Origin: a phage | Length of the DNA stretch: 64,000 nucleotides | Direction: 5' to 3' (one strand) | Sequence record: NC_129898.1 | In this document: positions 8,260-40,483 of the stretch, one piece after another | How the letters are laid out: the number at the start of each line of letters is the position of its first letter | Position numbering within the stretch: the first letter of the stretch is position 1 | Notes under the pieces: generated by a model | Database searches by the model: none | What the model was told of the DNA's origin: nothing | The model's input: the letters and a program-made list of their open reading frames with translations, nothing else | Program-made: the position numbers and the translations under genes

Positions 8260-8268
8260 GGAGAAATC

Positions 8269-10014: not shown

Positions 10015-10023
10015 TATATCTGA

Positions 10024-10049: not shown

Positions 10050-10062
10050 TCTGGAGAACACA

Positions 10063-13000
10063 ATGCTTCCAATCCCTTTGCTAAAACTTGGTCGTCATTT
10101 CCTCGATAAGAGGGGTGGAGTTAAGGAACTTGCTGTTCTGTCATACCCAATAGACAACAGTGACGGTACAAGCACTACAGTAGCCTATGTAAATAGCTTA
10201 GCTATACTTTTTGACAATGGTCAGCTTAATATTACGGGTTATAACAAATTCGGGGAGTGTCGCACTGGGGATAGTGACCCTATAAACTACCCTAGCGAAA
10301 CAGCCTGGAATGTTGATCATGTGTGGAGAGCAGACCGTGCGTTTGTGATCCGGACTTTTGATAACCAGTTTTTCTACATCGGCTGCACTGCAGGCCTTAT
10401 CGGGTCAACTGCGGCAGGTGGTAATGATGTTTGCGTAAACGAGTGGACACCTCTTCCTGAACAGATTGTTAAAGGGTTGCACCTTGATACCCACCCAGAG
10501 CGCCTTGTTGAGGTGATGGGCGGTATTAACAACACTATCTGGGTTATTGCAGAGGCAGAAGGCACTGGAATACTGAACCTGTACGGATCGGGTAACAACA
10601 CCTACGGATCTTTGCATGTAGATAAAAACCAGCATGCAACTCCTGTAAAGATTGGTGAAACATCAGAAAATCCTGAAACAGGTCCTTGGAAAAACCCAAG
10701 CATTAACTGCGAGGTGCATGATAACTCTGTTATTTTCGGTGGCCCTAGAGGTTTCTGGATTGCTGGATATGACTTTCTGAGAAATAATAGCAGAAACACT
10801 CTCGTTTGGCCCCCTGCTCAGATTACCCGTGACGATTTGAGGGGCATTCCTACAGATGAGGAGTGGAAAGGGTTCATGTGCGGTCCGAACGGGGCAGTGG
10901 TTGTAACACAAAGAATGCACAGACCTGATGACCAGCAACTTGTTAACGTATTCTACGGGCAAGATGTTTGGGGAGATGATACGTGGCGTGCCTTGAATAT
11001 CACCTACACCCATGAGGTAATAATGGCTCGTGGGTACGGCACAAGTGGCATTTTCTTCAACAATGGTACTAAGCAGTACCGTGGATTCTCTCGCAACTTG
11101 TGTAATGATATTGGTGCACAATCTGCAAACAATAGCCCTAGGGCTAATTTTATCCACTATCAGGCTCTTGCTACAGCTAAATATGTTGAGCAACGCCTGC
11201 CAGTTAGCTGGACAGAGAGTGTTTATTTCCAAGGCATCCACAGGGAAGGTTTCTTAGGAACCTTTACTGTTGTTAATGGCAAACTTTGGTGGTCAGGCAT
11301 CCCAAGAGGAAGTTTTGCAGGTTCTAACAACCTGTTTGGCGGCAGACTTAACAGTCAGGGGTTCACAGAGGTTCCTGAGAATTGGTATAAAAATGTCCCG
11401 GTAGATAGTTGGGGTGTTGAGGATATTTTCGACGTTAACGGTGTTAGCAGCGTTAGCAATATTTACATTGGTGACACGGTCAAGATGAAATTGAAGCCTC
11501 AGCCAGAGGGGGCTACGTTCATTATTGACAAGGTTGAACTGGTAAATGCTGCAGGCACGGTTGTTACAGATGCAAATTACCAATTCTCCACCAACTGGAA
11601 CCACGGTGGGGCCAACGAAGTTATTGTTACTCAGTATAACAGGAATGTTAACAGGCGTGGCCTGTACTCTGTAAAAATAACCTATCATGACAAACATGGT
11701 ACAGGCAGGACCCACACAACAAGGACTTTGAACTGGAACACTATTGTTCCGGCGTATCCGTCTGATGGTAAATGGCATACTGTCGGTAGAAACAAACAGT
11801 TCCATGTTAATGACACTGTATACTTTGGACTGAATGGGGCTCAGCCTGCAGTAGAAGGGGATACATCGTATATGGTCAGACTCCATAGAATGGATGCTGG
11901 ATCAGTAACTTATGATGTTACCCAAGAGATTTATGATCAGCGACGAAATACCTACAATAACTTGGTGCAGACGCAGGCCTTATGGGAGTTCAACCCCAAC
12001 GGCAGAGGTGGTAAAATGCTGCAGATCAACGAACAAAATGGGACATCGTTGACTGTTCACGAACACTCAGACCCGTGGCCTGATCCCGGAAAACCTCACC
12101 CAGGTGCTCGCACACTAAAAATTGTCAGCCATGACGTAGGATATTTCGGAATACGCTGGGAAGCAACGGTAAGATATGCCGACGGGACGACAAACAATAT
12201 AGGGATCACTCTTGGTGGAACCAGTGAGGATAACTCGCTGAAAATTGCCTACACACCCAGAGGCATCTCTATTGATAGTATGGATGTTGTTCGCAACGGT
12301 TACGGGGATGTGAACATCAAAGTTACTCTTGGTGAACATCTTGGCGGGGAAAGGATCATCATGTATGCCTTTGATCATGACCCTCGCACCAATGGAACAT
12401 ATGCAGACCAGGCGTGGAGCTACCTGATAAGCGCACCTGAGCCAAATACTAAAGAATTCTACTACGGTATGAAGCGAGATGTGTGCAAGAAAACAGGGAC
12501 ACATGACTGGATTGCGATCTGTGTTAAAGATGAACGTACCGCTTGGAACGAGCCTGTTAACAGATGGTTCATAGGTATTCCCACCCGAAGTGATAAATAC
12601 GTTGAAGAATATATTGTGTGCATGGGCGGCACCAACCTTAATATGTGTTGGAACGAGGATGCAAACAACAAATACTCTGATTATGACTATATGCGGGACT
12701 ATTCTTGCAATCAGTGGTTTAACCAACCTGGATATGCTGATCGACAGGCAAGAGTGAATCCTGCAATCTTCACAGATACTCAGGTTTTCTTGACAAAACA
12801 GGCTAACGAGGTTCAGACCTTCAAGAACAAATACGATCCTAACAAGTGGTTTTATAACTGTTATGGCGCATTTTTCTGGGGTCCTGGCGAACTACCTAAT
12901 GGAGGATCTTGCTTCGAGGCTGCAACTTACGCCAGTGACAGGTTTATGGGGCAGGTTAAGAAGTACAAGATAATCCCTGGTCCTGAAACTCTGGGCAATG

Positions 13001-15699
13001 CCGTTGACCCTTATATCGTCATGACCGTGCTGAGATCAAACATGGATGGGACATCCATGTCTATGCAAGTTCCAGTAACAAACGGGTACAAACGTGTTGT
13101 GATGATCATTAAGTGCGACTTAATAGGTAAGCAAGTTCTTGCAGAAAACGGAACCTCAACACATTTATTCGAGACTGCTCTGCATTATCAGTTTGCTGAT
13201 TCACCTTTTGCAGGGGATAAGAGAATATCTGATACAGACAATGCTCGATGCAAGAAATTTATGCTTGGTGGTGGATGGTGGTGGTATGAATTTGATTTAA
13301 CAGACAAATTCACCGACACGTCTAAAGTGGTGACAGGGCTTCGTCTAGATCTTGGCGAAAACATGCACAAAAGTGTTTGTGATGGCACCTACGGTGACCC
13401 AACAATCTACTTAAAGTATGTTTCTTTTGAGCACCCAGAGGATGTCGTTTATGGTCCAAAACTGAGACTGTTTGGCAATTGGATTGCTAAAGACAGGGCA
13501 GGTATGGGTAAAAAGGTGAGAGGGTTCTTAGTTGATGCAGGAACAGAAGACATGTTGGTTAATGCAGTGTGGCCTGAATTACCGGGAACTCAGTGGGACA
13601 ATTCTGCTAAGTCTATAAACTGGTTCAATATCCACAGAGCTATGTGGGCAACTAACTGCTATCTGTGGAAAGAGTTGAATGACGGCGCTTTCGGGTTTAC
13701 TGGTGGCAGAAGAATGGCAATCATTTGCTGGACAACGCTGCAGAGATGTTATGACCATGACTACGAGATTGGAGGCAGGGCATGGAAAAATATAAGGGAT
13801 AGAATCATAACTAACTTTGCAGATCCTAACGGTGGCGGGGCGTATGGTTTCGACTGCAGCAGGCTTATCCATTTGAACGGATCTTCGGCCTATAAGAAAG
13901 AAGGCTACTCTGGGTCCATGATTGAATGGGGCTTGGTAAAAGATTCTCGTGTGTTGATGGGTCAGCAACTTGCTGCTGCAATAGGACCGAACGCAGTACA
14001 ATCTGTTAAACCAGCATGGTTCGATATCCCATTATGGTCCTCTGGAACACCAGGAACTGCTGCAATCAACCCTACCACTGGGGATCTGGAAATCTCCTGG
14101 GAGGACCTGAAGCAGGTCGGTGGCTGGGATAAGACAGGGTACCAGGTGCAATGGTGGAGATCTGACGGATCATTGGCGGCTGATGAGTTTGTTAAGGACA
14201 ATTTCTACACCATGTCCTCTGCAAAAGCACAGCAATTGTTTGGTCAGGCCACTCCGTCAACGATCACCATGTCCATGTGCTGTAAAGACACCAGGACTGG
14301 AGCTCTGGGGCCAAGGGTTGCTAAAGTTTTCTCAGGTATTAAATGGAATCTCCCTGTTCAAAGTGTTTCATGGAAGCAAATAGGTGATAACAAGCTGCTG
14401 GTTACCCCAGCTTGTCAGTTCAACGCAACTCTTAACGTTGATCCTGCTGTTGCGGCAAACTCAGCTAAAGCTTCTGACTTCTCTGTGTCTAACACTGCTA
14501 TGGCAGATGTGAGGAAGATTGACACGCTGAACGCCAGAATTACCTGTAAAAACACTTATGGCACATTCCAGATCATCAACAACTTCACAGATGCTGATTC
14601 TAAGGTAGTGAGGACAGCAAGCCAAACTCTGAGTTTAGGAACTCTGGCCTACGCGGCCCTGATCACTGAACAGTCGGCAACACTCCAAGGAGGCGGTGTA
14701 GGCAAGTCCATTGCAACACCTGTGTGGAAGCCAAATGAGTGGGTTGTGTTTGATTTAACTGTGGACTTCTCCAGCGATAATAACTGGACATGGGTAAGGA
14801 ATTGCTTGTCACAACTGATGGGTGGTCCAAACTCCGTTAGTGATAGCCAAGACTCCACTGACCCGAGTGTGTTTCAGGTGGGTAAAACTCACCCAGAAAC
14901 TGGGGCACCGTTGCCTGACAGGAAGTATGCTTTGGTTTGCATCTCTTACGGAAAAGCAGATGTAACCTTCTCAGGGACACACACATATAACGGCACTTAC
15001 AACTTCTCTAAAAAGTACAGCCTCAAGGCAGGTAACATTGTAGACGAGGTTGGTGCGTTGTATAATCCAGGAAACGGGATAGGGATTGTAGGTGGTAAAC
15101 TGCAGATGCAGGAACCTTCTATTACCCCTTCCAACGTAGCCGGGATTAGAAAGACTTGGGAAAGTAGTAATACCAACATTGCAACAGTGGATGCTACCAC
15201 AGGACTAGTAACATTTAAAGCTCCTGGCAATGTCACTATAACGTTTGTAGCTACTGATGATGCAGGGCGCAAAACGTCTTCAACATCTTTTACTGTCAAA
15301 CAGATGACACCACAGTGGAGAATGTGGATAGGTACAGCAACAAACGGGGCATATCCTAATCCGGCAGGGACTTCTGGTATGAAGACTTTCTCTACAAGCA
15401 AGCCGATGGAGTACGGCAGCGGTCCTAAGGTAGGGCAGATGGTGTACTTTGGTGCGTATATTCCTGAAATTATAGGGCTTCCGAGAAGTCAGCTTCAGTT
15501 GCTGTTTGGGGCTGGTGTTGACGATCTTGCCACTTTCGGGTATAGAGACAACATCGATGCTGCAAGGAGTTCAGGATGGGTAGGGTTCAGAATGGAGTCT
15601 GGAAAGGAAGGCAGGATTCTAGGGACAGCCTCTATAGGTGTTATGTTCCCTGGTGACCAGCAGTATCGTCTAGAAGCCTACGCAACCTTTTCTCGTTAA
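10063..15699 (+). CDS. giant virion protein with Big_2 (bacterial Ig-like) domain, putative tail fibre/adhesin
   Basis: 1878-aa uninterrupted ORF; near the C-terminus the segment ITPSNVAGIRKTWESSNTNIATVDATTGLVTFKAPGNVTITFVATDDAGRKTSSTSFTVK resembles a Big_2 domain. Confidence 0.75.
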   Translation: MLPIPLLKLGRHFLDKRGGVKELAVLSYPIDNSDGTSTTVAYVNSLAILFDNGQLNITGYNKFGECRTGDSDPINYPSETAWNVDHVWRADRAFVIRTFDNQFFYIGCTAGLIGSTAAGGNDVCVNEWTPLPEQIVKGLHLDTHPERLVEVMGGINNTIWVIAEAEGTGILNLYGSGNNTYGSLHVDKNQHATPVKIGETSENPETGPWKNPSINCEVHDNSVIFGGPRGFWIAGYDFLRNNSRNTLVWPPAQITRDDLRGIPTDEEWKGFMCGPNGAVVVTQRMHRPDDQQLVNVFYGQDVWGDDTWRALNITYTHEVIMARGYGTSGIFFNNGTKQYRGFSRNLCNDIGAQSANNSPRANFIHYQALATAKYVEQRLPVSWTESVYFQGIHREGFLGTFTVVNGKLWWSGIPRGSFAGSNNLFGGRLNSQGFTEVPENWYKNVPVDSWGVEDIFDVNGVSSVSNIYIGDTVKMKLKPQPEGATFIIDKVELVNAAGTVVTDANYQFSTNWNHGGANEVIVTQYNRNVNRRGLYSVKITYHDKHGTGRTHTTRTLNWNTIVPAYPSDGKWHTVGRNKQFHVNDTVYFGLNGAQPAVEGDTSYMVRLHRMDAGSVTYDVTQEIYDQRRNTYNNLVQTQALWEFNPNGRGGKMLQINEQNGTSLTVHEHSDPWPDPGKPHPGARTLKIVSHDVGYFGIRWEATVRYADGTTNNIGITLGGTSEDNSLKIAYTPRGISIDSMDVVRNGYGDVNIKVTLGEHLGGERIIMYAFDHDPRTNGTYADQAWSYLISAPEPNTKEFYYGMKRDVCKKTGTHDWIAICVKDERTAWNEPVNRWFIGIPTRSDKYVEEYIVCMGGTNLNMCWNEDANNKYSDYDYMRDYSCNQWFNQPGYADRQARVNPAIFTDTQVFLTKQANEVQTFKNKYDPNKWFYNCYGAFFWGPGELPNGGSCFEAATYASDRFMGQVKKYKIIPGPETLGNAVDPYIVMTVLRSNMDGTSMSMQVPVTNGYKRVVMIIKCDLIGKQVLAENGTSTHLFETALHYQFADSPFAGDKRISDTDNARCKKFMLGGGWWWYEFDLTDKFTDTSKVVTGLRLDLGENMHKSVCDGTYGDPTIYLKYVSFEHPEDVVYGPKLRLFGNWIAKDRAGMGKKVRGFLVDAGTEDMLVNAVWPELPGTQWDNSAKSINWFNIHRAMWATNCYLWKELNDGAFGFTGGRRMAIICWTTLQRCYDHDYEIGGRAWKNIRDRIITNFADPNGGGAYGFDCSRLIHLNGSSAYKKEGYSGSMIEWGLVKDSRVLMGQQLAAAIGPNAVQSVKPAWFDIPLWSSGTPGTAAINPTTGDLEISWEDLKQVGGWDKTGYQVQWWRSDGSLAADEFVKDNFYTMSSAKAQQLFGQATPSTITMSMCCKDTRTGALGPRVAKVFSGIKWNLPVQSVSWKQIGDNKLLVTPACQFNATLNVDPAVAANSAKASDFSVSNTAMADVRKIDTLNARITCKNTYGTFQIINNFTDADSKVVRTASQTLSLGTLAYAALITEQSATLQGGGVGKSIATPVWKPNEWVVFDLTVDFSSDNNWTWVRNCLSQLMGGPNSVSDSQDSTDPSVFQVGKTHPETGAPLPDRKYALVCISYGKADVTFSGTHTYNGTYNFSKKYSLKAGNIVDEVGALYNPGNGIGIVGGKLQMQEPSITPSNVAGIRKTWESSNTNIATVDATTGLVTFKAPGNVTITFVATDDAGRKTSSTSFTVKQMTPQWRMWIGTATNGAYPNPAGTSGMKTFSTSKPMEYGSGPKVGQMVYFGAYIPEIIGLPRSQLQLLFGAGVDDLATFGYRDNIDAARSSGWVGFRMESGKEGRILGTASIGVMFPGDQQYRLEAYATFSR

Positions 15700-29215: not shown

Positions 29216-30421
29216 ATGATTTTCATCTACGAACATTTCAAAACCCGTAAAGAAGCACGAGACCGCCGTGCAGAACTTGAGAAGAAAGGTTTCACATGCG
29301 CTATTGAGAAAGGTGACACAACCTGGACACTGGCAGTGGGTGCCCCAGAGGTGTTCGATCCTGACCGTGACAGCGTCTGCTACACCCGTGAGGATTTTGA
29401 AACCCGTGAAGAGGCCCGTTTATTTCGATATGGGTTGGAAGATAACGGTAAGTACGCCATGATCCTAGACTTAGGCGAAGGTTCCGTTAAACGTTGGGGC
29501 GTGGTATACCCACTGTGTGTTGTTCACGGTGTGGGGTTCACTGGGGTAGCAGTTAAGTCAGAAGAACCTTCGGTAGAAGTCAAAGACCCGGTGCTGGAGG
29601 TGGTGAGCAGTGTGTCTCAGCAACAGACTCGAAGCATCGAGCCTTTGGTAGTTATTTGCGGAGAACTCCTCCAGATCACCTGCAACGAAGGTATTTTTGA
29701 AATTCGCCGTAGCGAAAGTGAGGAAGTTTACCAGAAAGTCTTCGACCATATCTCTGTTCAGGAATATGATGAGGCAATTGGTGAAATCCTTATCTGGCTG
29801 GAACGCAAGAATGAGTTCACTACACTGACAGACAACCTGATTATGAAAGATGGTAAGCTCTACTACTACGGTGTAGAGATGCGATCTACCATTGCAAAGA
29901 AAATTGAGAAAGATTATGCAGATGGAACACTGGATGACCGCTATGTGAAATTCCTAGTTCGCCTGTTACGCAATCCGTCTGCAAAATCTGTAAACATGCT
30001 CTACGATTTTATGCAGGCAAACGACATTCAGATTGCAGAAGATGGTCGAATCATTTGCTACAAAGGGGTTCAGTTTAACGGCGACAAGTGGGTGGATTGG
30101 CACAGTGGTAAAGTCCCACAATACCAGGGTGCTTTTGTATCCATGCCTCGTAACTTTGTAGAGGATGATCCGGAAGCTGCATGCTCTTATGGTCTGCACT
30201 GTGCCAGCAAAGAGTGTGCAAAGAGCTACGGCACTGTGATGACGGTTATGGTTGACCCTGCTGATGTAGTCAGTGTACCTTACCAACACAACAGCGCTAA
30301 GTGCCGTGCATGCCGCTACGAAATCGTAGTAGCTCCAGAATCGCGCAAAGATGGAGACCCAATCGAGTACGTGGTTGACCGCGACGGCAACACTATCGAC
30401 ATTATCTACGAGGAGGCGTAA
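29216..30421 (+). CDS. hypothetical protein, possibly rIIB-like partner
   Basis: 401 aa; C-terminal region SYGLHCASKE...VMVDPADVVSVP...CRACRYEIV resembles what I recall of the rIIB C-terminus; recall-based. Confidence 0.4.
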   Translation: MIFIYEHFKTRKEARDRRAELEKKGFTCAIEKGDTTWTLAVGAPEVFDPDRDSVCYTREDFETREEARLFRYGLEDNGKYAMILDLGEGSVKRWGVVYPLCVVHGVGFTGVAVKSEEPSVEVKDPVLEVVSSVSQQQTRSIEPLVVICGELLQITCNEGIFEIRRSESEEVYQKVFDHISVQEYDEAIGEILIWLERKNEFTTLTDNLIMKDGKLYYYGVEMRSTIAKKIEKDYADGTLDDRYVKFLVRLLRNPSAKSVNMLYDFMQANDIQIAEDGRIICYKGVQFNGDKWVDWHSGKVPQYQGAFVSMPRNFVEDDPEAACSYGLHCASKECAKSYGTVMTVMVDPADVVSVPYQHNSAKCRACRYEIVVAPESRKDGDPIEYVVDRDGNTIDIIYEEA

Positions 30422-31791
30422 TGGAAAAAGGGCAGTACGATGTAGGCACAGATGCTGCCCTTGTTGCAATCATGAGTGGTGAGAATGTCTTCGTAAGTGG
30501 ACCGGGTGGAACCGGGAAGACATATCTTATCAACATGATCCAGTCTATGTATGGAGACTCTTGTATAACGGTTGCCCCGACAGGGGTAGCCGCTTTAAAC
30601 GTTAATGGAGCAACAGCACACCGAACTTTCGATCTTGCCGCAGGTGTGAGCATGGAGTCAGACTGGACAGCAATAAGGGCAAAAACAGCAAAGCCTCTGA
30701 AAAGCAAGGCATTTACCATCCTAATTATCGATGAAATCTCTATGATCCGTGCTGACAAGTTCATAGAGATGGACAGAAAACTCCGCTTTCTTCGGAAAAA
30801 TGACAAACCTTTCGGAGGCATTCAGGTGTTATTGTTTGGAGATTTCTACCAAGCGCCTCCAGTTGTCTCTTCCATGGAGAAAGAAGCCTACTTCAACTTC
30901 TACCACACAGATCTGTGTTGCTATACAGAATCTTGGGAGGATCTTAATCTTCACAATATAGCCTTAGTAGACCAGTTCCGTCAGGAATCTGTTCGCTTCG
31001 CCACAATGTTGAACTGTGTTCGTGAAGGTCGTCGCATAAAAGAGGTTGTAGCAGAGCTTAACACTCGTTGCTATCATGGCGGTGTCCCAACAGATGCCTT
31101 GACCATCTGTGCCACCAATAAGCAAGCAGAGGAGGTGAACAGACGTTTCTATGATGCCATCAAGGCCCCAGAGAAGACCTACATTGGTAAAATGAAGGGT
31201 AAGTTCCCTTCCACACTGCCTGTGGAGCAGGAAATGAGGCTGAAGATAGGGATGAAGGTTATGATAACCTCAAACGATGTTGACCCTACTCACAAAGTTC
31301 CGTATTATGTCAACGGGACACGTGCCACAGTGGTAAAATTCAAGACCAAATCCGTGGTAGTTGAGCTAGAAGATGGGGCACAGGTTGAAATTGAGCCGAG
31401 ATTGTGGGAGAATAACGAGTACAAACCTTCCCAGAGGTACAATATTGCCGAAAGGAAGATGGAGAAGTTCATAGAGAGGGTTGTGATCGGGTCTTATGAG
31501 CAACTCCCTTTGAAATCGTGGTACGCAGTAACATCGCATAAAAGTCAAGGACTTACACTAGATTGTTACAACCTGGACCTCGGAAAGAACGGAGCTTTCT
31601 CTCCCGGAATGACGTATGTTGCCTTGAGTCGGGTTAAGACGATACAAGGAATAAACTTGTTGCGTCCATTAAGAGAGGTGGATATTATTGTTGACCCGCG
31701 AGTCGTAGAGTTTTATAATACAACTTTCCCTGGCTTAGACGAGAAAGTCAGGAAAGATTTTGAAACTAGAGTAGAAAAGGGGGACGTATGA
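30421..31791 (+). CDS. Dda/PIF1/RecD-like superfamily 1 DNA helicase
   Basis: Walker A GPGGTGKT, Walker B LIIDEISM, motif LLFGDFYQAPPV and C-terminal SHKSQGLTLD. Confidence 0.8.
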   Translation: MEKGQYDVGTDAALVAIMSGENVFVSGPGGTGKTYLINMIQSMYGDSCITVAPTGVAALNVNGATAHRTFDLAAGVSMESDWTAIRAKTAKPLKSKAFTILIIDEISMIRADKFIEMDRKLRFLRKNDKPFGGIQVLLFGDFYQAPPVVSSMEKEAYFNFYHTDLCCYTESWEDLNLHNIALVDQFRQESVRFATMLNCVREGRRIKEVVAELNTRCYHGGVPTDALTICATNKQAEEVNRRFYDAIKAPEKTYIGKMKGKFPSTLPVEQEMRLKIGMKVMITSNDVDPTHKVPYYVNGTRATVVKFKTKSVVVELEDGAQVEIEPRLWENNEYKPSQRYNIAERKMEKFIERVVIGSYEQLPLKSWYAVTSHKSQGLTLDCYNLDLGKNGAFSPGMTYVALSRVKTIQGINLLRPLREVDIIVDPRVVEFYNTTFPGLDEKVRKDFETRVEKGDV

Positions 31792-32126
31792 GTTTGTGGA
31801 GAAATATAGTTAACTACGTGTGTGGCAATCCAAATCCTGAAGAGAAGGCTGTTGTGATTCACGATTTTACTAAAAGATCTCGTGAAAAAGACCTCCTGCT
31901 AACAAAGGTGATCGATAAAGACCCTGTAGGGGACTGGGCAGGGTTTGCGTTTACATCTGACAAATACACCTTTAACAAAGGTGACTACCTTGTTGTGGAT
32001 TTTAACGAAGACATCGAGGGTGCTGAACCTTACTATCAGACCCTTATCGTTGCGGAGTGTGTTGAGCTATCTGCAAACATGCACAGTTTGATTCTTTTTG
32101 AGCTTGACTCTGAAGACCTTCAGTAG
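31788..32126 (+). CDS. hypothetical protein
   Basis: 112-aa ORF coupled to the helicase gene. Confidence 0.5.
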   Translation: MSLWRNIVNYVCGNPNPEEKAVVIHDFTKRSREKDLLLTKVIDKDPVGDWAGFAFTSDKYTFNKGDYLVVDFNEDIEGAEPYYQTLIVAECVELSANMHSLILFELDSEDLQ

Positions 32127-32167: not shown

Positions 32168-32190
32168 AAAACTGGGGAGAGCACCAAACG

Positions 32191-33531
32191 ATGAGCAAAA
32201 CCAAATTAGAGCTTACCTGGACAGGCAAAAACGAGCGAAAAAAGTTAGATCCGTGCATTTTGTTAGAAGATACGAGCAAGTCTTATCACGCCAGTCAAAA
32301 GGTTACCGAAAACGATATTTTTGATAATAAACTGATTTTTGGCGATAACTTACTGGCATTGAAGGCACTAGAGCAAGAGTATGCAGGCAAAGTGAAGTGT
32401 GTTTACATAGACCCACCATTCAATACCGGAAGGGATTTTGAGCACTACGATGATAGCCTGGAGCACTCCATTTGGCTGGGCTTAATGCGGGACAGGTTAG
32501 AAATAATTCGTAATCTGCTAAGCGATGATGGAGTAATATTCGTTCACCTAGATGACTGCGAAATGGCTTATTTAAAAGTTTTGATGGACGAGATTTTTGG
32601 TCGTGCAAATCAGTTAAATACCATATCGATGACCACGAACTGTCCTTCGGGCTTTAAGGCAACAGGAACTACAGTTTTCTCCACAGCAAACTTTTTGCTT
32701 GTATATGCAAAAGATCGTACCAAGAAGCCGCTTAACAAAATCTATATACCTAAAGGATATGATACGGGATATAACAAATATCTATTAAACCCGGATGACC
32801 ATTATAAAAGTTGGACGTGGTGCGGTATTGCCGATGCGTTTGCAAAGGCCAATGGCTATAAAGATACAAAAGAGGCCAAGAAAAAACTGCCTGATACATT
32901 TGATGATGAATTAGCACAATTTGCAATTGATAATGCAGAACGTGTATTTCAATCCGTTGCAATTGGCGGCGGTGCTAAGATAAAGAGAAAAGAAACTATC
33001 GAGAAGTCAAAGAAAGACAGGGATAAGGTTTATGTACATCCAAATGAGGATGTCGAAGGCTTTTATATCGTAAATGGTAGGCAAATGGTATTTTACTCTA
33101 ATAGGCTTTTGGAAATTGACGGTGAGATGCAGCCTGCTGAACTAATAACTGATGTTTGGACTGACATTAGTTGGAATGGAATAGCAAATGAAGGAGGCGT
33201 TAGTTTCAAAAATGGGAAAAAACCTGAAGCGCTTTTAAAGCGGATTTTCGAAATGTGTACGCGAGAAGGGGATTTAGTCTTGGATTCGTTCGGCGGTTCA
33301 GGAACTACTGCTGCTGTAGCTCACAAGATGAAAAGACGTTGGATCTCGGTCGAGCTAGGTGATCATTGTCATACCCATATCATCCCGCGCTTGCAAAAAG
33401 TGATCGATGGCGAAGATCAAAGTGGTATTTCTAAATCTGTAAACTGGCAAGGTGGCGGCGGCTTTCGCTATTACAAACTTACCCCGAACTTAGTTGTGAA
33501 AGATAGGTTTGACTCAGAAGAAGATTTATAG
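32191..33531 (+). CDS. beta-class N6-adenine or N4-cytosine DNA methyltransferase (N6_N4_Mtase family)
   Basis: Motif IV DPPF (VYIDPPFNTG) N-terminal and AdoMet motif I LDSFGGSGTT C-terminal; ATG 32191 chosen after RBS GGGGAGAG (track begins upstream at 32137). Confidence 0.75.
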   Translation: MSKTKLELTWTGKNERKKLDPCILLEDTSKSYHASQKVTENDIFDNKLIFGDNLLALKALEQEYAGKVKCVYIDPPFNTGRDFEHYDDSLEHSIWLGLMRDRLEIIRNLLSDDGVIFVHLDDCEMAYLKVLMDEIFGRANQLNTISMTTNCPSGFKATGTTVFSTANFLLVYAKDRTKKPLNKIYIPKGYDTGYNKYLLNPDDHYKSWTWCGIADAFAKANGYKDTKEAKKKLPDTFDDELAQFAIDNAERVFQSVAIGGGAKIKRKETIEKSKKDRDKVYVHPNEDVEGFYIVNGRQMVFYSNRLLEIDGEMQPAELITDVWTDISWNGIANEGGVSFKNGKKPEALLKRIFEMCTREGDLVLDSFGGSGTTAAVAHKMKRRWISVELGDHCHTHIIPRLQKVIDGEDQSGISKSVNWQGGGGFRYYKLTPNLVVKDRFDSEEDL

Positions 33532-33590
33532 TAATATTTAAAACATCGAAGGGGAGGTCTACTCTCAGCCCGAGATAAGGAGAACACCGA

Positions 33591-33896
33591 ATGATGAAGC
33601 GTTATAAACCCTACACTTTTGAAATCGATTTCGAACTTGACGATATGCTCACTGTAGAGGCTCAGGCAGTTGTCCAGCTGCCAGATCAGGAGTGCTGTGA
33701 TTCTGATGTTGATTATTATGGATTTAGACAAATTACTGATGTGCATGTTTACCACAACGGAGAAGAGGTGGATTTTCACCAGCTGCCAAACGATCTGCGC
33801 CACTCGATTTACAAACGTGCAGCACGTGAACTAGAGTCCTATTTGGATGCAGCAACAACAGCAGCAGCATTTGCTGAAGAAGTAGGAGGCTTCTAA
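33591..33896 (+). CDS. hypothetical protein
   Basis: 101-aa ORF after RBS AAGGAGA. Confidence 0.5.
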   Translation: MMKRYKPYTFEIDFELDDMLTVEAQAVVQLPDQECCDSDVDYYGFRQITDVHVYHNGEEVDFHQLPNDLRHSIYKRAARELESYLDAATTAAAFAEEVGGF

Positions 33897-34294
33897 TGAT
33901 TACAGATGTGAAGATTATTCAATACCACTTAACCAAATTGGAAGATGCTGAAAAAGAGCTTGCAGAAGTTCTGAATAGTGGGTATACTTTACTTACATGC
34001 TCCTGTTCAGACACATACATTGTGTGGACACTTGCTAAGAAGGAAGAACCAGCAGGAATCTTGGTGCCAAACCCTAAGATTATTAGTGAGGTGGACGACT
34101 ACTCTCAGGATGGCCTGCCAGAAGGCTGGGAAGCATGGGAAGGTGGTGAAAACCCTGCACCAGGTAAGTGGGTAAAATACAAGCTGCGGAGTGGTACACA
34201 ACATGCTTACTACTCTGATGATCTGGACTGGGGTCACTCTTCACCAGATTCGTTTGAAAGTCAATATGATATCGTTGCTTATCAGGAAGAATAA
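33896..34294 (+). CDS. hypothetical protein
   Basis: 132-aa ORF with ATGA overlap. Confidence 0.5.
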   Translation: MITDVKIIQYHLTKLEDAEKELAEVLNSGYTLLTCSCSDTYIVWTLAKKEEPAGILVPNPKIISEVDDYSQDGLPEGWEAWEGGENPAPGKWVKYKLRSGTQHAYYSDDLDWGHSSPDSFESQYDIVAYQEE

Positions 34295-34306
34295 GGAGAT
34301 AGTGTT

Positions 34307-34789
34307 ATGTCAGATTTCATGTGGAAGGTAGGCTATGCTTCTCCTGAAATGTGCGAGGCCTGCTTTGTGAAAATAGGTCGAGAGGATATCGATAAAGTGA
34401 TCCTTAAGTTTCGTGATGTGGCTGTAATCGGCAACCGAGTGCTTAAGCACTTAAAGAATCTGAAGCTCACCAAAAAGAAGTTCTTTGGGCTTTTCGAAGA
34501 GAAAGTTGATGCTTGGACCCATTGCATTCAGGAAGCTAAATCTCACTACAGTGCTATCGTTACCCCAGAACGGGTAGCTAAGATGGAAGGATTCATCAAC
34601 AGCACAGAGTTTGAGTGCCTAAAGGCTGCCCTTGATAGCTATCCAAAGTGCCTCAAACACCTTGACAAGTATGTGGAAAAAGATGGGGAAATGTATCTCA
34701 CCCTGGATGCATACTATGAGATGCAAGAAATTTTAAATTTAGATTTGACATTGGTATCCACCGAGTATACAATAGGTATCCGGGTTTAA
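34307..34789 (+). CDS. hypothetical protein
   Basis: 160-aa ORF after RBS AAGGAGA. Confidence 0.5.
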   Translation: MSDFMWKVGYASPEMCEACFVKIGREDIDKVILKFRDVAVIGNRVLKHLKNLKLTKKKFFGLFEEKVDAWTHCIQEAKSHYSAIVTPERVAKMEGFINSTEFECLKAALDSYPKCLKHLDKYVEKDGEMYLTLDAYYEMQEILNLDLTLVSTEYTIGIRV

Positions 34790-34793
34790 CACT

Positions 34794-34823
34794 AGGCCCT
34801 GCCCGAAAGGGTGGGGCTTTTTG
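34794..34823 (+). terminator. rho-independent terminator
   Basis: Hairpin gccctgccc-gaaa-gggtggggc plus T-tract; near-identical copy at 45915. Confidence 0.65.
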
Positions 34824-34840
34824 CATTAGGAGACAGCAAA

Positions 34841-35605
34841 TTGAAATTTATCTACAAAGAACACTACCACAAAGGTGTTGTGTGGAGTCTATTTGACGGG
34901 TCTGGTGGTGCAGTTATTGACTGGGCAAAAGCTGGATATCTGTGCCTGTGCTTTAACGCAGAAGGCGCTGACCATGGCAGTTATGCAGAGGTGATAACCG
35001 ATCATCCAAACATTCACTACGTGGATTATTGGATTGACCCGTGGTTTCCTCAAGAAACTTTTTGCATGTACCCAGCTCCAGACTTTATTCTTGCATTTCC
35101 TCCGTGCACGCATTTAGCAGTATCAGGTGCTGCACATTTTAAGAAAAAGCTGGCTAAGGATCCTCTGATTCAAATTAATGCTGTAAAAGATGCTCGGGTT
35201 GCAGAAGAGTTAGGAGAGATTTACGATTGCCCGTGGCATGTGGAGAATCCTGTGGGAGTTATGTCCACACTGTGGCGAAAACCTGATTACCGTTTTCATC
35301 CTTCAGATTATGGCGGGTATTTACCGGAGGATGATGTAAACCCGTGGTTTCCTGAATTTATAGCTCCACGTGATGCCTACCCAAAAATAACTTGCGGTTG
35401 GATAGGCAATGGATTTATAATCCCAGCCACAAAACCTGTTCCGCAAATAGTAGATGCGGTTAGTGGTTATTCTATGCAACACGCTAAGCTAGGTGGAAAG
35501 AGTGCAAGGACGAAGATGATTCGAAGCCTTACACCACGTGGCTGGGCTAAAGCTGTATTCTTAGCAAACGAGCCTGCAGTAAGGAGCAGAATTAATGGGC
35601 AGTAA
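34841..35605 (+). CDS. compact cytosine-5 DNA methyltransferase-like protein
   Basis: Motif I SLFDGSGG, motif IV-like FPPCTHLAVSGA, motif VI HVENPVG; TTG 34841 chosen after RBS AGGAGA (track starts at GTG 34811 inside the terminator); no obvious target-recognition domain. Confidence 0.55.
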   Translation: MKFIYKEHYHKGVVWSLFDGSGGAVIDWAKAGYLCLCFNAEGADHGSYAEVITDHPNIHYVDYWIDPWFPQETFCMYPAPDFILAFPPCTHLAVSGAAHFKKKLAKDPLIQINAVKDARVAEELGEIYDCPWHVENPVGVMSTLWRKPDYRFHPSDYGGYLPEDDVNPWFPEFIAPRDAYPKITCGWIGNGFIIPATKPVPQIVDAVSGYSMQHAKLGGKSARTKMIRSLTPRGWAKAVFLANEPAVRSRINGQ

Positions 35606-37673
35606 ATTCATGGCATCTGCATACAACCGTTTCGGTGAGCCAAACCCGAAAGCAACCAAATATAAAAGTGGGGGGAGTGTGAAACGAGACTATCGTGATG
35701 AAAAAGAGGTCGAAACTGTAGAGACTGTTTTAGAAAATACTAAAATTGTCCCTGTCCCACAACAAAATATCGGACTAATGGCTGCACAATACTTTGGTGT
35801 GCGATCAGCATTGTCTCAAGAAGATGGGGTAACGGTCACTGCAACATATTTCCCATATTACGACCGCTACGGTAATCTATCTGGCTTTAAAAAGCGCGAC
35901 TGGACAATCCCTAAAGAGCAAAGAGGCCATTTCTCAGTTGTTGGCATAGTAAAGGCCAACTCTCAGATGTTTGGTCAAAAGCTGTGTGCATCCTCCAACA
36001 ACCGCAAGCAGATTAACGTTTGTGAGGGGGAAGGGGATGTTATTGCAGCATGGCAAGCTGCATATCAGATACAAGTGAAAGGTATTCTCACCAATGCTAA
36101 AGCCCCCGCGAAGGTGAAGCAGTGGGCTAAAGAAGTTCAGGATGGGATCGATGCAGTTATCAACGGCGGCGATCTGGCAGGAAAACCCTGCCTGCCTTTT
36201 GTTGGAATTAACTGCGGGTGTGCAAACGCCGTAGATACTTTTGCTAACAATGAGAAATTTATCCGTAGCTACGGAACAGTGGTCCTTGCAATGGACAACG
36301 ATGCAGCTAACGAGGTAGAGAAGCAAAAACACGTTATCAAAGGTGTTGAGGCCACACATAATATCGCAGCATTTTTGATGGCTGATAACGTTTACCACGT
36401 GGAATACCCAGGTGAGGTAAACGACCCTGATGGTGTAAAAGATATTCGTGACATGCTGAAGGCTAAAAAGCTGGAAGATATTGTCAACATGTTCCGTCAC
36501 CCAGTTAAATATGTGCCCGATGCTGTATCTGATTTAGAAGACTTCTCCATTGAGTCTCTTCGTAAGAAGACTTCCAATGGCGTGGATATCAGTGCGGAGT
36601 TCCCTAAATTGCAGAAGATGCTGAAAGGGCTCCACAAAGGCACCTTGATGATGCTGACAGGTCCATCTGGCGGTGGTAAAACAACTGTAGCCAAGAAGCT
36701 GGAACACTGCATCGCAAGATACTTGATGGATCCAACATGCCCTAAAGCTGATGATTATGAAGAGGATGATCGCCTGTGTCTGATTCACCTTGAAGAGGAT
36801 CCTGAGGAAGCAATCAACTCTCTGTACGCTAACCAGTTGGGGTTTGATGTTAAAGAGTTTGTTGAAGACCCTAGTCAGTTCCTGACCGACCAGGAGCACG
36901 CTGAGATTCATCAATCTTGGGCCAAGGCCGGAAAAATCAAAGTGTTCAAGCATTTCGGCTCCATCCCTGTGGATGAGCTGATCACTAAGCTTAAACAAAT
37001 GGTGTGCCTGTATCACTGCCGTTACATTGTGCTGGATCACTTGTCTATGGTGATTTCAGGGCTTAATGTTAAGGATGAGCGCAAAGAACTTGACATGGCT
37101 ATGACCCAACTAGCTGCGTTCTGTAAGCAGTTTAATGTGTTTATCCTGGTGATTGCTCACCTGAAACGTACAGAGATTGTACCTCCTAAGGATAAGGATG
37201 GGAATCCGTTGCCTTTCTGGTACCCTGTACGAAAAGAGAACCTTCGTGGTAGTGCCGGATTGGAGCAACTCAGCTGGGTAGTTGTTGGGGTAGAAGCAGA
37301 AGAGATGGTGGATCGTTCTCGTGGGCGTGTCCGTCTAGTAGGTCTTAAAAACCGTCCAGCAAAAACGTTAGGTATTGCGGACACTTTAGTTATGGATCCG
37401 CACACAGGCAAGTTCCACGATGCCAGCAATTGGTACTGGGATAAAGAAATGCAAATGTTTACAGACGGAGAAGGTGGGGAGGTTGTTTGGAGACCTCAGG
37501 CTATGTTTGAGGATCAGGATCATGCAGTTGTGGAAACACCTATGGGCAAGGTTGTGGCTGATAAGGTTGTAACTCCTACTGTTACCCCAGTTGACACACA
37601 GGAAGACCTTCAGTATGATGATCCGTCCTCTAACCACGTTCCTGGTTTTGAAGACGACGAAACACCTTTTTAA
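35595..37673 (+). CDS. bifunctional primase-helicase (Toprim primase plus DnaB-like helicase, T7 gp4-like)
   Basis: Toprim acidic motif VVLAMDNDAANE, Walker A MLTGPSGGGKTT, Walker B-like YIVLDHLSMV. Confidence 0.75.
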   Translation: MGSKFMASAYNRFGEPNPKATKYKSGGSVKRDYRDEKEVETVETVLENTKIVPVPQQNIGLMAAQYFGVRSALSQEDGVTVTATYFPYYDRYGNLSGFKKRDWTIPKEQRGHFSVVGIVKANSQMFGQKLCASSNNRKQINVCEGEGDVIAAWQAAYQIQVKGILTNAKAPAKVKQWAKEVQDGIDAVINGGDLAGKPCLPFVGINCGCANAVDTFANNEKFIRSYGTVVLAMDNDAANEVEKQKHVIKGVEATHNIAAFLMADNVYHVEYPGEVNDPDGVKDIRDMLKAKKLEDIVNMFRHPVKYVPDAVSDLEDFSIESLRKKTSNGVDISAEFPKLQKMLKGLHKGTLMMLTGPSGGGKTTVAKKLEHCIARYLMDPTCPKADDYEEDDRLCLIHLEEDPEEAINSLYANQLGFDVKEFVEDPSQFLTDQEHAEIHQSWAKAGKIKVFKHFGSIPVDELITKLKQMVCLYHCRYIVLDHLSMVISGLNVKDERKELDMAMTQLAAFCKQFNVFILVIAHLKRTEIVPPKDKDGNPLPFWYPVRKENLRGSAGLEQLSWVVVGVEAEEMVDRSRGRVRLVGLKNRPAKTLGIADTLVMDPHTGKFHDASNWYWDKEMQMFTDGEGGEVVWRPQAMFEDQDHAVVETPMGKVVADKVVTPTVTPVDTQEDLQYDDPSSNHVPGFEDDETPF

Positions 37674-37731: not shown

Positions 37732-40155
37732 ATGAGTATGTGGTCTTTCGATCTGGAGGCCTCTGGCTTGCTGGAAGATCCAGATCTTTATTATCACTGC
37801 GGTTTGTTTAAAGAGCTGAATAAGAACCGTTTTATGCTGTTCCTTCCTCTAAATGACCGCACACACTACTCGGAAGAGGATGTAGAGAAGGCTAAGAACT
37901 TTATTCTGGCAAAGAGAACTCTTTATAAAGATTTTGAGGTTCGCATAGCAGATTTTTCAGAGTTGGAAGGTTGGCTTACAGGCAACTCAGACTGGTCACC
38001 TACGGCTTTGAACTGTCATAACTGCTACAGCTATGACTTTATGCTGATGGAAAGATTATCCGGTGTTCATTTTGATATGTTCCGTGATCCTAAATGTATG
38101 GGGACTATTAACGACCACCAGGTTAATCTGTTTGATACGTTGGCGATGAGTCGAATCTTGTGGCCTGACCGCCCTTTGCCAAAAGGTTGTCCGGACGCAG
38201 TATTCAATCCAGTTACCAAGAAAATGCAGCCTGTTGGGCCTCATGGCCTTATGGCATGGGGCTATGCCCTTGGTAACCAGAAAGTTCAAATCGATGACTG
38301 GCGTGAGCTTCCGCTGTGGAAGTATGTGGATCGTGTGTTCGAGGACGTTATCATCCAGGAGTTGCTCTGGAAAGAGTTGGTAGCGGAATCAAAAGGTGTA
38401 TTCTACGGCAAATCTGACATGCAGAACTTTATGTATGACCCTGCCAAAGAGAAGCCTAAAGGATTCAAGAAGATTACCTGGAAGAATGCATTACGCCGAG
38501 GCATGCTGCAGCATTTCCTGATGGAGCTGCAGGCTCGACAGGGTGTGTATTTCGACATAGATGGGGCTATTGCTTTACGTGACCGCTGCGATGCGTGGAT
38601 GAAAGAGATCGCTGATCGTGTTGAACCACAACTTCCTTTAAAAGAGTTATCAATGTCTCAGCGGCCTAAGTTCCCTGAAAAGCCGTTTAACCAGGATGGG
38701 ACAATCTCCAATAATGGTTGGAAATGGTTAAAAGACAAGCTTGGCTATCCTGTGGATATGAGCGCTTTAGAGTTCAAAGCTCCTCCTAAGCGAGCATTTA
38801 CCTCCACAGGGGATGTCAGTAAAATGGGGATAAAATGGTGTGAAGAGATGGGCTGTAAAGACCCAGATAAGATGGCTGATTTCTTGAGAGGGTATATCAA
38901 AGGAACTTCTACACCACACCCTTTACCTAAAGAGCTAATGGATCAGGCAATAAGTGACCTACAGCAGAAGCGAATGCCTGACTGCAAGATACCTATGAAA
39001 ATCAGCAATCAGGACGACATCAAGCGATACCTGATCAGTGCTGGTTGGCTCCCAACAATGTGGAGAACTAAGGATGTAACTAAAGACAGCAAGAAGAAAG
39101 CTCTGCCTGATGCTGATGTTGATGCACGAGTATATGCATATATGGACGAGCTTTTAGAGTCAGAGTATTGTGACCTAATTATCAACTTCTGGAACAAAAC
39201 TGATGCTAAGTTTCAGACAACCGTGCACAAGTTCCGAAGCTTCCCTAACTCAGAAAGGATTAAAAAGGAAGTGTTTGGGAAGATACGTAGAAAAGCCAGA
39301 GCGCTTATTACTTCTCCGCAACTGAAAGATACGTTTGGACACCTATGTCCGAATCTTGAAAAGTTGAACGGAGAGATGGCTAAAGATATCGTCTTGTGGT
39401 TATCCTTGCGAAACCGTAGATCGGTCCTTGATCCAATCAAGGAGGATAAGGTTGATACTGGTCTTCTTAATCATCCACGTTTGAAGATTGACCATAAGCT
39501 TCCTGCTAAAAGTTCTGGATTAACAAACACTTCCAGACAGAAACACAGCATTTGTGCAAACATGCCTAAACCATCTCCTAAAGTGGTTATGGGTAAAGAG
39601 ATGCGTAGTCTGTGGGGTGTTCCTCCAGGATACTTTGAGATCGGTATTGACGGGTCCAACTTAGAGCAGCTTATCGGGGCTTGGGGTGCCTTTGAGTTCG
39701 ACAACGGCCTGTACTATGATGTTGTAAGTAACGGGGACGCGCACCAAAACAATGCTGAGGCATATACAAAGGTAGCAGGTAGGGAGGTGTCTCGTAACGA
39801 TGGTAAACCTATCACGTATGGGGTTATGTATGGGGCACAAAAAGATAAAGTTGCAGATATGCTGGATATCTCTCCAGAGCTGGGGCAGAGAGTAATCGAT
39901 GCTCTCTGGGATGCCAACCCAGGCCTTAAGGGGCGTAAAGAGGATCTGGAGAAATTCTGGGAAGCAACAGGTAAGAAATTTATCTACTCTTTTGACGGTC
40001 ATGCCATTTGGACCCGCTCTAAACACTCTTTGCTTAATGCATATCAGCAAAATGGCGGTGCATCGTTGTGCGACTTGGTCGGAATCCTCATGCACCACCA
40101 AATGGTGAAGCGTGGATGGTATGATGAGGGTGTTCGTCGTATTATTTATTACCAT
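37732..40155 (+). CDS. family A DNA polymerase, exon 1 (3'-5' exonuclease and most of polymerase domain)
   Basis: Exo I motif FDLEASGL; motif A-like IGIDGSNLEQL; motif B RNDGKPITYGVMYG; frame as annotated stops 1 codon after the proposed splice site, before motif C. Confidence 0.8.
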
Positions 40156-40483
40156 AAATAACATTGTGGCTTCGTGCAGTGATGCACGTCGAAAACCTCT
40201 TTAATTGACGGGAAGGCTAAGTTGACTTTTACACCTAAACATGGTAAAAGCTCAATATGCTAATCCGCAGCGAAGCATCCGAGAGGATGAACGTTCAGAG
40301 ACTATCGAAAGCATAGCTCCAACACAGTTTGGGGTGAAGAAGCGAGTAGAGTAGGCCAGCAAGTGCGGTCGAAATGAGAGGTGCCTTGGTAACAAGGCAG
40401 TGAGATAGTCCGATCCATACGGGAAACTGTATGGCTATGCACGTAATGGTGCGGGGTAGCTTAACGACCTACCTGAACTATTG
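40156..40483 (+). ncRNA. group I self-splicing intron in the DNA polymerase gene, no internal ORF
   Basis: Conserved core elements P (aattgacgggaagg 40203), Q (aatccgcagc 40262), R (gttcagagactatc 40303), S (gagatagtccg 40402); 5' exon ends in U, intron ends in G; guide-like gtgg at 40167 pairs with exon end ccau. Confidence 0.7.

Follow-up and report, generated by a model that had tools for sequence, protein, structure and literature searches.

The stretch of phage DNA analysed here, a window of 64,000 nucleotides from sequence record NC_129898.1, carries two methyltransferase genes, which we refer to as open reading frame (ORF) A (32191-33531) and ORF B (34841-35605); coordinates are window positions unless another record is named, and all window features given below lie on the plus strand. 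The source is a Vequintavirus (rV5/FV3-like), an E. coli phage. Approximately 4 kb around both genes are 95.7% identical at the nucleotide (nt) level to Escherichia phage FV3, the closest relative, and 92-95% identical to more than 100 further rV5-like phages of the genus. The gene order is rIIA, rIIB, a Dda/PIF1-like helicase, a 112-aa ORF, ORF A, three small ORFs, ORF B, a primase-helicase and a DNA polymerase. Both methyltransferase coordinates agree with the deposited FV3 annotation, and both genes are known in kind, being annotated already in over 100 deposited genomes: database entries list ORF A as a 'putative adenine methyltransferase' or as a 'type III RM methylation subunit' (RM for restriction-modification), and ORF B appears under names as varied as 'hypothetical protein' and 'Dcm-like C5 cytosine methyltransferase'. 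The two reading frames are genuine, intact genes that evolve under purifying selection. What is new is the relation of ORF A to a specific host type III Mod, the methylating subunit of a Mod-Res pair: as judged from sequence comparison, ORF A is a nearly identical copy of it, cut off precisely at a domain boundary.

ORF A starts with ATG and encodes a beta-class N6-adenine DNA methyltransferase of 446 aa. The protein matches the Pfam family PF01555 (N6_N4_Mtase) with an E-value of 3.5e-42 and 145.3 bits (cut-off 26.7), and the catalytic motif IV, DPPF (residues 74-77; 32410-32421), is N-terminal to the S-adenosylmethionine (SAM)-binding motif I, FGGSGTT (residues 367-373; 33289-33309). The target-recognition region, approximately residues 180-340 (32728-33210), is located between these elements, separating motifs IV-VIII from X/I. 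Together, the family match and the motif order bear out an earlier note on this DNA, which had called the ORF a beta-class N6/N4 methyltransferase from the same two motifs. An aspartate in motif IV is typical of N6-adenine enzymes. Furthermore, ORF A aligns with the PADLOC type III profile MTase_III PDLC03636 at an E-value of 9.6e-205, yet only along profile positions 2-446 of 575, and its best matches in the Protein Data Bank (PDB) are type III Mod proteins (6k0w, E 2.5e-30; EcoP15I Mod, E 1.7e-23). The similarity takes in the N-terminal LTWxGK region, and the stretch corresponding to the target-recognition domain (TRD) aligns with neither EcoP15I nor 6k0w Mod, as would be anticipated of a TRD. 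A Pfam and PHROG scan of the neighbouring ORFs recognised no Res-type protein beside ORF A.

Over residues 1-443, ORF A is 95% identical at the amino-acid level to a 567-aa chromosomal Mod of E. coli (cluster P0121; WP_024226319.1). The matching gene is present in 24 of 5,426 complete E. coli genomes (0.4%), chromosomal in every case and with 94.7-94.9% nt identity, and many of the listed carriers are cattle or human-stool isolates. In a local blastn comparison with the host locus of NZ_CP024618.1, the homology covers 32178-33520, where the phage DNA is 94.5% identical to the 5' 1.33 kb of the type III mod gene; it runs from 13 nt 5' of the ATG to 11 nt 5' of the phage stop codon, and is confined to this segment. 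The host locus, as seen in the genomes of two strains, SMN152SH1 (NZ_CP024618.1) and 2014C-3011 (NZ_CP027591.1), is an island at selC (tRNA-Sec), between setC and yicJ, that is missing from K-12. Its content is, in order, a helix-turn-helix (mad1-like) protein, a DrmD-like SNF2 protein, AbiD, a 206-aa protein for which no matches were obtained, Mod and Res (locus coordinates 4115-13464). Identification of the island as ARMADA II or DISARM was considered, and was rejected for ARMADA II, which sits on O-island 172 with another composition. On an unrelated metagenomic contig, a Mod is again accompanied by an SNF2 fragment and a small, ~186-aa protein, which hints at this Mod family working inside a larger SNF2-containing system.

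The host Mod, 567-568 aa in length, fills the PADLOC profile (positions 1-572 of 575), and directly 3' of it is a Res protein of 912 aa (REase_III, E 9e-191; Pfam ResIII). To place the end of the phage-host homology on a known architecture, we made use of EcoP15I Mod, which consists of an N-terminal domain (NTD; 14-60), a methyltransferase domain (62-262 and 390-516), a TRD (263-384) and a C-terminal domain (CTD; 539-644), and which dimerises via the NTD and methyltransferase domains while the CTD of ModA contacts Res extensively (Gupta et al. 2015, PMC4490356). Residues 339-449 of the host Mod align to EcoP15I Mod 414-531, and the homology end point at residue ~443 maps to EcoP15I ~525, between the end of the methyltransferase domain at 516 and the start of the CTD at 539. 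Considering this end point and the EcoP15I domain map, ORF A is a Mod without the Res-docking domain. By analogy, it would mark phage DNA with the self-mark of the host without being able to recruit Res. A general rule that a short Mod means a phage gene is unsupported, as the short Mod P0171 (442 aa) has a cellular context.

The evolutionary constraint on ORF A was assessed against the host gene and among phage copies. The ratio of nonsynonymous to synonymous substitution rates (dN/dS) against the host gene is 0.095 overall, and 0.02 in the TRD (codons 180-340), where a single nonsynonymous difference stands beside 11 synonymous ones; between phage copies the ratio is 0.07-0.09. The straightforward inference from the TRD value is that ORF A probably keeps the recognition specificity of the host Mod unchanged. 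ORF A is lacking in part of the genus: in approximately 30 of 116 related records the match is limited to sequence downstream of it, and in MaxTheCat and HeinrichReichert the small genes that flank it directly adjoin. Among the 12 BASEL Vequintavirus phages it is present in Bas48 and Bas50-55, disrupted in Bas49, where only 43 N-terminal codons are left in frame, and absent from Bas56-59. Judged by the loss in about a quarter of relatives and the disruption in Bas49, the gene is dispensable and accessory.

Where present, the phage copies all measure 441-447 aa, in two diverged Vequintavirus clades that are each ~95% identical to the E. coli gene and 92-93% identical to each other. The two clades have a common 5' junction of ORF A, but differing 3' junctions. 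The copy in the window is closer to the host gene (94.8% nt identity, dS 0.21) than to that of the other clade (92-93%, dS 0.33-0.36), which could stem from a host copy that evolves more slowly or from repeated exchange between phage and host. The simplest history is one capture, followed by faster divergence in the phages. Moreover, an 81%-identical Mod of 444 aa that also lacks the CTD is found in another phage (Logan SRR16894903 contig, 8001-9335), between PhoH and a Clp protease, which suggests from the differing insertion site that the truncated mod behaves as a mobile cassette. This copy adjoins a Dam-like methyltransferase and a split NrdD.

The second gene, ORF B, encodes a compact Dcm-like C5-cytosine DNA methyltransferase of 254 aa. 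Its family is large, with 3,550 homologs of ~225-260 aa, and is represented in 1,503 deposited phage genomes including Drexlerviridae (Tls dcm), Dhillonvirus, Klebsiella T1-like phages and Seunavirus; all 12 BASEL Vequintavirus phages carry it. ORF B itself has no match in Pfam, NCBIfam or PADLOC, and phmmer and hmmsearch against the PDB returned only E-values of ~0.4 to 1, over motifs I-IV. The class assignment consequently rests on PHROGs (phrog_757, E 7.9e-87), fold and alignment. Of 27 diverse members of the family, 20 match the C5-methyltransferase family PF00145 at E <=1 (best 1.3e-6). The AlphaFold2 (AF2) model is of good quality (pLDDT 88.3, pTM 0.88), and its top Foldseek matches are all C5-methyltransferases, namely DNMT3A/B and the E. 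coli prophage enzyme 3g7u. Congruent with this, weak sequence alignments of the family to DNMT3B, HaeIII and HhaI are in register from motif I to motif IV. An hhalign comparison of the family with an M.HhaI sequence aligns motifs I-IV only, at 5% probability, and serves just to illustrate the register.

Conservation in ORF B was examined in an alignment of the 27 diverse members, with a separate check of 120-121 sequences for signature motifs. Motif I, LFDGSGG (residues 17-23; 34889-34909), forms the FxGxG SAM loop, and motif IV, FPPCTHLAVSG (residues 86-96; 35096-35128), contains the predicted nucleophile Cys89, present in 27/27 relatives. Motif VI reads ENP in the context V-E-N-P-V (residues 135-137; 35243-35251), with Glu135 invariant. 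At the position of motif VIII, the canonical QxRxR is replaced by YPK(K/I)T, here YPKIT (35378-35392) with an invariant Lys182, and ~20 extra residues follow DYGG of motif VII. From the motif VIII-like strand to the block resembling motif IX (IRSLTPRG, compare RxLTPRE; 35519-35542) there are only ~38 residues (190-226; 35408-35518), a 'mini-TRD' that is mostly loop in the AF2 model and leaves no separate TRD domain. PPC, ENP (Glu135 and Asn136) and the first Lys of YPK(K/I)T are invariant in the 27 members, and the C-terminal GGK..RTK.IRSLTPRG block is invariant or almost so. No separate motif X is recognisable in ORF B, and the near-invariant Asn243 on the last helix is a possible substitute. 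With dN/dS of 0.006-0.024 at dS 0.29-0.40, ORF B is under very strong purifying selection.

The chemistry of the family is illuminated by a study of retron Ec86, in which four of four escapers of phage K42, a close relative of the BASEL phage KarlJaspers, had a 711-bp 'Dcm' gene disrupted, or probably disrupted, by mutation (bioRxiv 10.1101/2023.08.16.553469). Expression of K42 Dcm raised the 5-methylcytosine (5mC) content of the retron multicopy single-stranded DNA (msDNA) as measured by liquid chromatography-mass spectrometry, and a C82A/E128A/K175A/K176A mutant, the four residues having been changed jointly only, did not; control msDNA from dcm+ MG1655 contained little 5mC (10.1101/2023.08.16.553469). 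Thus, the phage enzyme does something that host Dcm does not. The corresponding KarlJaspers (Bas06) gene, bas06_0055, is 711 bp long and encodes a Cys at position 82, as published for K42 Dcm, and ORF B is 54% identical to its product over the full length (E 2e-86). C89, E135 and K182 of ORF B are equivalent to C82, E128 and K175 of K42 Dcm, with Ile183 in place of K176. The family has one variable segment, inside the mini-TRD, reading GYSxQH in 87 of 120 sequences, ORF B among them, and DNPGW in 30 of 120; the KarlJaspers protein, outside those 120, is of the DNPGW type. It follows from the different loop type that the specificity of ORF B may differ from that of K42 Dcm.

Most of what the earlier note had read from the letters of ORF B holds. 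The C5-methyltransferase call is supported by phrog_757, the motifs and Foldseek; the description of a compact enzyme with no clear TRD agrees with the short stretch between motifs VIII and IX; and structure prediction, proposed there as a check, yields the C5-methyltransferase fold. Two of the motifs it listed, LFDGSGG and FPPCTHLAVSG, are present, but its motif VI, given as ENV, is in fact ENP. A profile search, the other check that it proposed, was unproductive for ORF B in Pfam and successful through phrog_757 and through the relatives that reach PF00145. The suggestion that the compact enzyme may have an atypical substrate fared less well: with a 54%-identical family member making 5mC in DNA, that idea is without basis.

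The signals around ORF B are informative for its expression. The start at 34841 is TTG and not ATG, as in 7 of 7 relatives checked, and is preceded by the Shine-Dalgarno sequence AGGAGA (34828-34833) with a 7-nt spacer. A GC-rich hairpin with a T-run, intrinsic-terminator-like (34794-34824), is located between the preceding ORF and ORF B, and an upstream in-frame GTG (34811) falls inside it, which argues against this GTG as the start. A sigma-70-like promoter match, TTGACA-17-TACAAT (11/12; 34745-34773), a consensus match only, stands ~20 nt 5' of the hairpin and just before ORF B, an odd order. The hairpin might stabilise the 5' end of the ORF B/primase-helicase transcript, or act on it as an attenuator. 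The DnaB-type primase-helicase (35595-37673) has its ATG 11 nt inside the 3' end of ORF B and its ribosome-binding sequence AAGGAG within ORF B, and this overlap and internal signal imply that the two genes are co-transcribed. Exactly at the ORF B/primase-helicase junction, Bas49 (6816-7487 of the extracted locus L009) and Bas58 (5132-5803 of L012) carry a putative homing endonuclease gene.

Among the remaining neighbours, the Dda/PIF1-like helicase (30421-31791; Pfam PIF1, E 1.8e-33; phrog_325, E 3.6e-109) is followed by the 112-aa ORF (31788-32126; phrog_11869), which forms the left edge of the ORF A insertion-deletion, as seen from the adjacency in MaxTheCat and HeinrichReichert. The three small ORFs of 101, 132 and 160 aa between ORF A and ORF B (33591-34789; phrog_4240, phrog_11995 and phrog_12900) have no match in a Pfam scan, and by synteny they stay with ORF B in relatives without ORF A. 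Weak PHROG matches annotated 'DNA ligase' were seen for 31788-32126 (phrog_10936, E 3.7e-5) and for 33896-34294 (phrog_10384, E 3.9e-7, N-terminal ~50 residues only), and 33591-33896 weakly matches a PHROG labelled DNA methyltransferase (E 6.5e-4). Downstream of the primase-helicase, a large ORF (37732-40161) corresponds in position and size to the FV3 gene annotated as DNA polymerase. The earlier note, in placing the methyltransferase genes beside helicase, primase-helicase and polymerase, located all three neighbours correctly; the nearness is better read as co-expression with replication than as a sign of special modification. The polymerase gene is split (37732-40161/40481-40837) by a group I intron at 40146-40433 (Rfam RF00028, 75.6 bits, E 3.5e-19), and the BASEL annotation gives the polymerase as a two-piece join. 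The 320-nt gap is without a homing-endonuclease ORF in the window; FV3 annotates an HNH endonuclease there. Sixteen GenBank records labelled as phages of Campylobacter jejuni (MG065635, MG065646, MG065659 and others; e.g. C12, D1, C5) are, over this locus, ~92% identical to rV5-like phages of E. coli; they have no annotation and are probably mislabelled or carry-over E. coli phages.

Published plating data were then used to assess anti-restriction. The Vequintavirinae have been described as 'exceptionally susceptible' to RM systems (PMC8594841). Raw efficiencies of plating (EOPs) from the same work were compared on its six RM systems, including EcoRI, EcoRV and the type III systems EcoCFT_II and EcoP1, for Bas50-52 (with ORF A), Bas56 (partial rows) and Bas57-59 (all without ORF A), together with a single row for Bas49; Bas48 and Bas53-55 were left aside. 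On EcoRI, EOPs of ~1e-4 to 1e-3 are found for every phage compared, all with ORF B and 3/7 with ORF A, and EcoRV permitted no plaques, save in one Bas58 replicate at 1.25e-6 (PMC8594841). With the type III systems, Bas50 and Bas52 formed no plaques on EcoCFT_II (4e-6 in one Bas50 replicate) and plated at 0.02-0.04 on EcoP1, while Bas51 ranged from none to 0.06 on EcoCFT_II and formed no plaques on EcoP1. Among the phages without ORF A, none of Bas56-59 formed plaques on EcoCFT_II, and EcoP1 gave 0.12-0.57 for Bas56 and Bas57 and none to 0.004 for Bas58 and Bas59. Broad anti-restriction by ORF A or ORF B is ruled out. For ORF A, the best reading is narrow protection against the cognate host type III system. 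The earlier note had proposed both genes as candidates for anti-restriction modification; in the case of ORF A this role is strengthened by the 95% identity to the Mod of a Mod-Res pair, whereas a broad effect is contradicted by the BASEL EOPs. The observed counts of CCWGG, GATC, GTAC, EcoRI, EcoRV and type III sites in the window show no strong avoidance or enrichment relative to expectation, and hence convey nothing on the specificity of either enzyme. The rV5 genome paper contains nothing on methylation.

Adenine methylation has been recorded in the related phage Bas51. Native nanopore calling of N6-methyladenine (m6A) demonstrated that GATC methylation needs a phage N6 adenine methyltransferase, with the escape mutations D69G, D79G and T83P (PLoS Biology 2025, PMC12548924). 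The sites called in wild type were 1405 GATC, 509 GTAC and 576 other, compared to 35, 511 and 349, respectively, in the T83P mutant (Fig 4f source data, PMC12548924). Thus, GTAC and ~350 other sites persist independently of the GATC enzyme in the virion DNA of a phage with an ORF A homolog, which is in line with an active ORF A. The window contains 151 GTAC sites, which scales to ~660 GTAC adenines per 140-kb genome, and the ~510 calls accordingly indicate marking of both strands at most GTAC sites. The ~350 other sites are similar in number to what is expected from a one-strand 5-bp Mod site. We considered whether the retron-triggering enzyme of Bas51 is its ORF A homolog, and rejected this, since the homolog has C, G and E at positions 69, 79 and 83. 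The trigger is instead bas51_0176 (MZ501111 108091-108624), a 177-aa protein with NPPY, D69, D79 and T83, encoded beside ClpP and PhoH and outside the present window. The inspection of Bas51 for further methyltransferases, which covered the genome apart from positions 1-61 kb, recovered another candidate adenine methyltransferase, bas51_0200 (MZ501111 124069-124887; phrog_5172), of 272 aa with EPSAGRG then NPPF, a gamma-class order, and with no Pfam or PDB match. Hence, rV5-like phages have at least four methyltransferase genes, ORF A, ORF B, bas51_0176 and bas51_0200. Assignment of the GTAC m6A of Bas51 to ORF A was not adopted: bas51_0200 is an equally good candidate, a palindromic 4-mer such as GTAC would suit it at least as well as a Mod, and miscalling beside 5mC made by ORF B is possible.

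Taken together, it is likely that both proteins are active, sequence-specific DNA methyltransferases acting on replicating phage DNA, with ORF A as a captured host Mod that gives narrow immunity and ORF B as a core minimal C5 enzyme. According to this proposal, ORF A would be the captured Mod subunit of an E. coli type III RM pair that keeps the NTD, the methyltransferase core and the TRD, parts that, going by EcoP15I, should suffice for dimerisation, site recognition and adenine methylation. It would write the 'self' mark of the host system on phage DNA, and no new restriction complexes would be assembled. The expected outcome is narrow immunity versus the rare E. coli lineages with this Mod-Res system, which fits the present-or-absent spread of ORF A in rV5-like phages. 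ORF B, in turn, is predicted to use Cys89 and Glu135 for the standard covalent C6-attack and methyl transfer, and may read its target by the ~38-residue loop in place of a full TRD.

Several observations weigh against this proposal. Activity and Res-blindness of a Mod without the CTD would be an extrapolation from the distantly related EcoP15I. ORF A is lost in about a quarter of relatives and broken in Bas49, its presence makes no consistent difference to EOP on the six BASEL RM systems, and ORF B provides no detectable protection in the same assays. The extra m6A of Bas51 is not assignable to ORF A because that phage also encodes bas51_0200. The CCWGG target of K42 Dcm is an assumption combined with msDNA mutagenesis, the site not having been mapped (10.1101/2023.08.16.553469), and ORF B is unlike K42 Dcm in the sole variable loop of the family and has Ile for K176. 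Finally, the TTG start suggests low expression of ORF B. As to the plating, the lack of an ORF A effect on six systems is what a cognate-only model predicts, with K-12 devoid of the selC island; yet this is negative evidence and lends no support.

Among the alternatives, the one that survives best concerns the payoff of ORF B, which might mainly be other than anti-restriction: the enzyme could regulate replication, transcription or packaging, counter a non-RM defence, or methylate single-stranded or hairpin DNA with relaxed specificity. We regard this as a possibility to be kept in mind, albeit clearly the less probable one. It accounts for a core gene with dN/dS ~0.01 that nevertheless gives no BASEL protection, for the translational link to the primase-helicase and the helicase neighbours in unrelated phage families, and for the methylation of a retron msDNA stem-loop by the K42 homolog though MG1655 has its own Dcm. 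The minimal recognition loop, with DNMT3 and its small TRD as the closest structural match, points in the same direction. On the other hand, a CCWGG-type enzyme would find no site to protect in any of the six BASEL systems, and orphan phage C5-methyltransferases are classically protective.

For ORF A, we also considered the more far-reaching idea that loss of the Res-docking CTD from a captured Mod is a deliberate and recurrent counter-defence design of phages, in which a 'Res-blind' Mod writes the self-mark without arming the nuclease, may poison Mod-Res assembly by heterodimers, and moves as a cassette between loci and lineages; this is speculative and rather improbable. Two narrower explanations are unlikely. 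ORF A could be a functionless or decaying remnant of an acquired host gene fragment, its truncation being simply the recombination point. Such a fate would suit an accessory gene missing in ~30 of 116 records and in Bas56-59, disrupted in Bas49 and without a phenotype on six RM systems. It is difficult to reconcile with purifying selection after capture (dN/dS 0.07-0.10 at dS 0.2-0.36), intact DPPF and FGGSGTT motifs, a constant length of 441-447 aa in two clades, the 81%-identical copy at another locus, and an end point at a domain boundary. Equally doubtful is that ORF A mainly acts as a dominant-negative decoy, forming heterodimers with host Mod that bind Res poorly. As EcoP15I dimerises by NTD and methyltransferase domains and docks Res by the CTD, a protein that keeps the first two at 95% identity and lacks the third could behave in this way. 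The notion is purely inferential, however; only one of the two EcoP15I Mod CTDs contacts Res, so that a heterodimer could remain restriction-competent, and constrained catalytic motifs and a TRD at dN/dS 0.02 are needless for a pure decoy.

It is very improbable that the group transferred by ORF B is other than methyl, e.g. carboxymethyl from carboxy-SAM (Cx-SAM) as in CmoX, or that its substrate is RNA or free nucleotides. The carboxymethyl idea was prompted by a CmoX hit. The defining features of CmoX enzymes are SPPC and an Arg for HhaI N304, with an associated CmoA. Such carboxymethyltransferase chemistry was rejected for ORF B: FPPC/YPPC is found in 121/121 sequences of the family, an Asn close to the C-terminus is nearly invariant, and the scan of neighbouring ORFs recognised neither a CmoA nor a CmoY partner. 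Least credible of all is broad protection from restriction by dense genome modification through both enzymes together, as the two methyltransferases in the window, joined by at least two others at further loci of related genomes, are set against published plating with strong restriction whatever the gene content, and against a window in which short palindromes are not avoided.

Phages often carry orphan methyltransferases, and rV5-like phages are in use for O157 typing and in cocktails for therapy and biocontrol. As it stands, the finding is ordinary, and the compact family of ORF B already has a biochemically tested member. ORF A, under the narrow-immunity proposal, ties one phage gene to one rare E. 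coli defence island, and would be a concrete determinant of host range in rV5-like phages. The loss of the Res-docking domain suggests a way in which a phage may safely borrow part of a multi-subunit restriction enzyme. Moreover, phage methyltransferases of two of the families seen here are known as retron triggers, and thus represent liabilities as well as assets.

Comparison with known systems places the two genes as follows. Relative to DNMT3A/DNMT3B, M.HhaI and M.HaeIII (PF00145), ORF B is only ~12-17% identical, and lacks the Pfam match, QxRxR, a full TRD and a recognisable separate motif X. CmoX (PDB 8yf3), a phage DNA cytosine C5-carboxymethyltransferase, has the SPPC signature that is missing in ORF B, and the tested ORF B relative makes 5mC. 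That relative, the K42/KarlJaspers Dcm, known as the trigger of retron Ec86 (Eco1), shares with ORF B phrog_757, the catalytic Cys, Glu and first Lys, a size of ~236-254 aa and helicase genes nearby; it differs in belonging to Drexlerviridae rather than Vequintavirinae, and in its DNPGW loop and K176. As for ORF A, bas51_0176, which is GATC-specific and triggers retrons Asa1 and Squ1, is likewise an orphan methyltransferase of the same phage group, but a different gene of a different family. EcoP15I/EcoP1I Mod (PDB 4zcf) shares with ORF A the family, the domain order of NTD and methyltransferase with inserted TRD, and the beta-class motif order, whereas it is remote in sequence and has another TRD and a CTD (EcoP15I 539-644) that ORF A lacks. 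The closest counterpart is the host Mod (P0121), set apart by a C-terminal domain of ~125 residues and an adjacent Res gene, neither of which accompanies ORF A, and otherwise sharing with it the NTD, DPPF, FGGSGTT and an essentially identical TRD.

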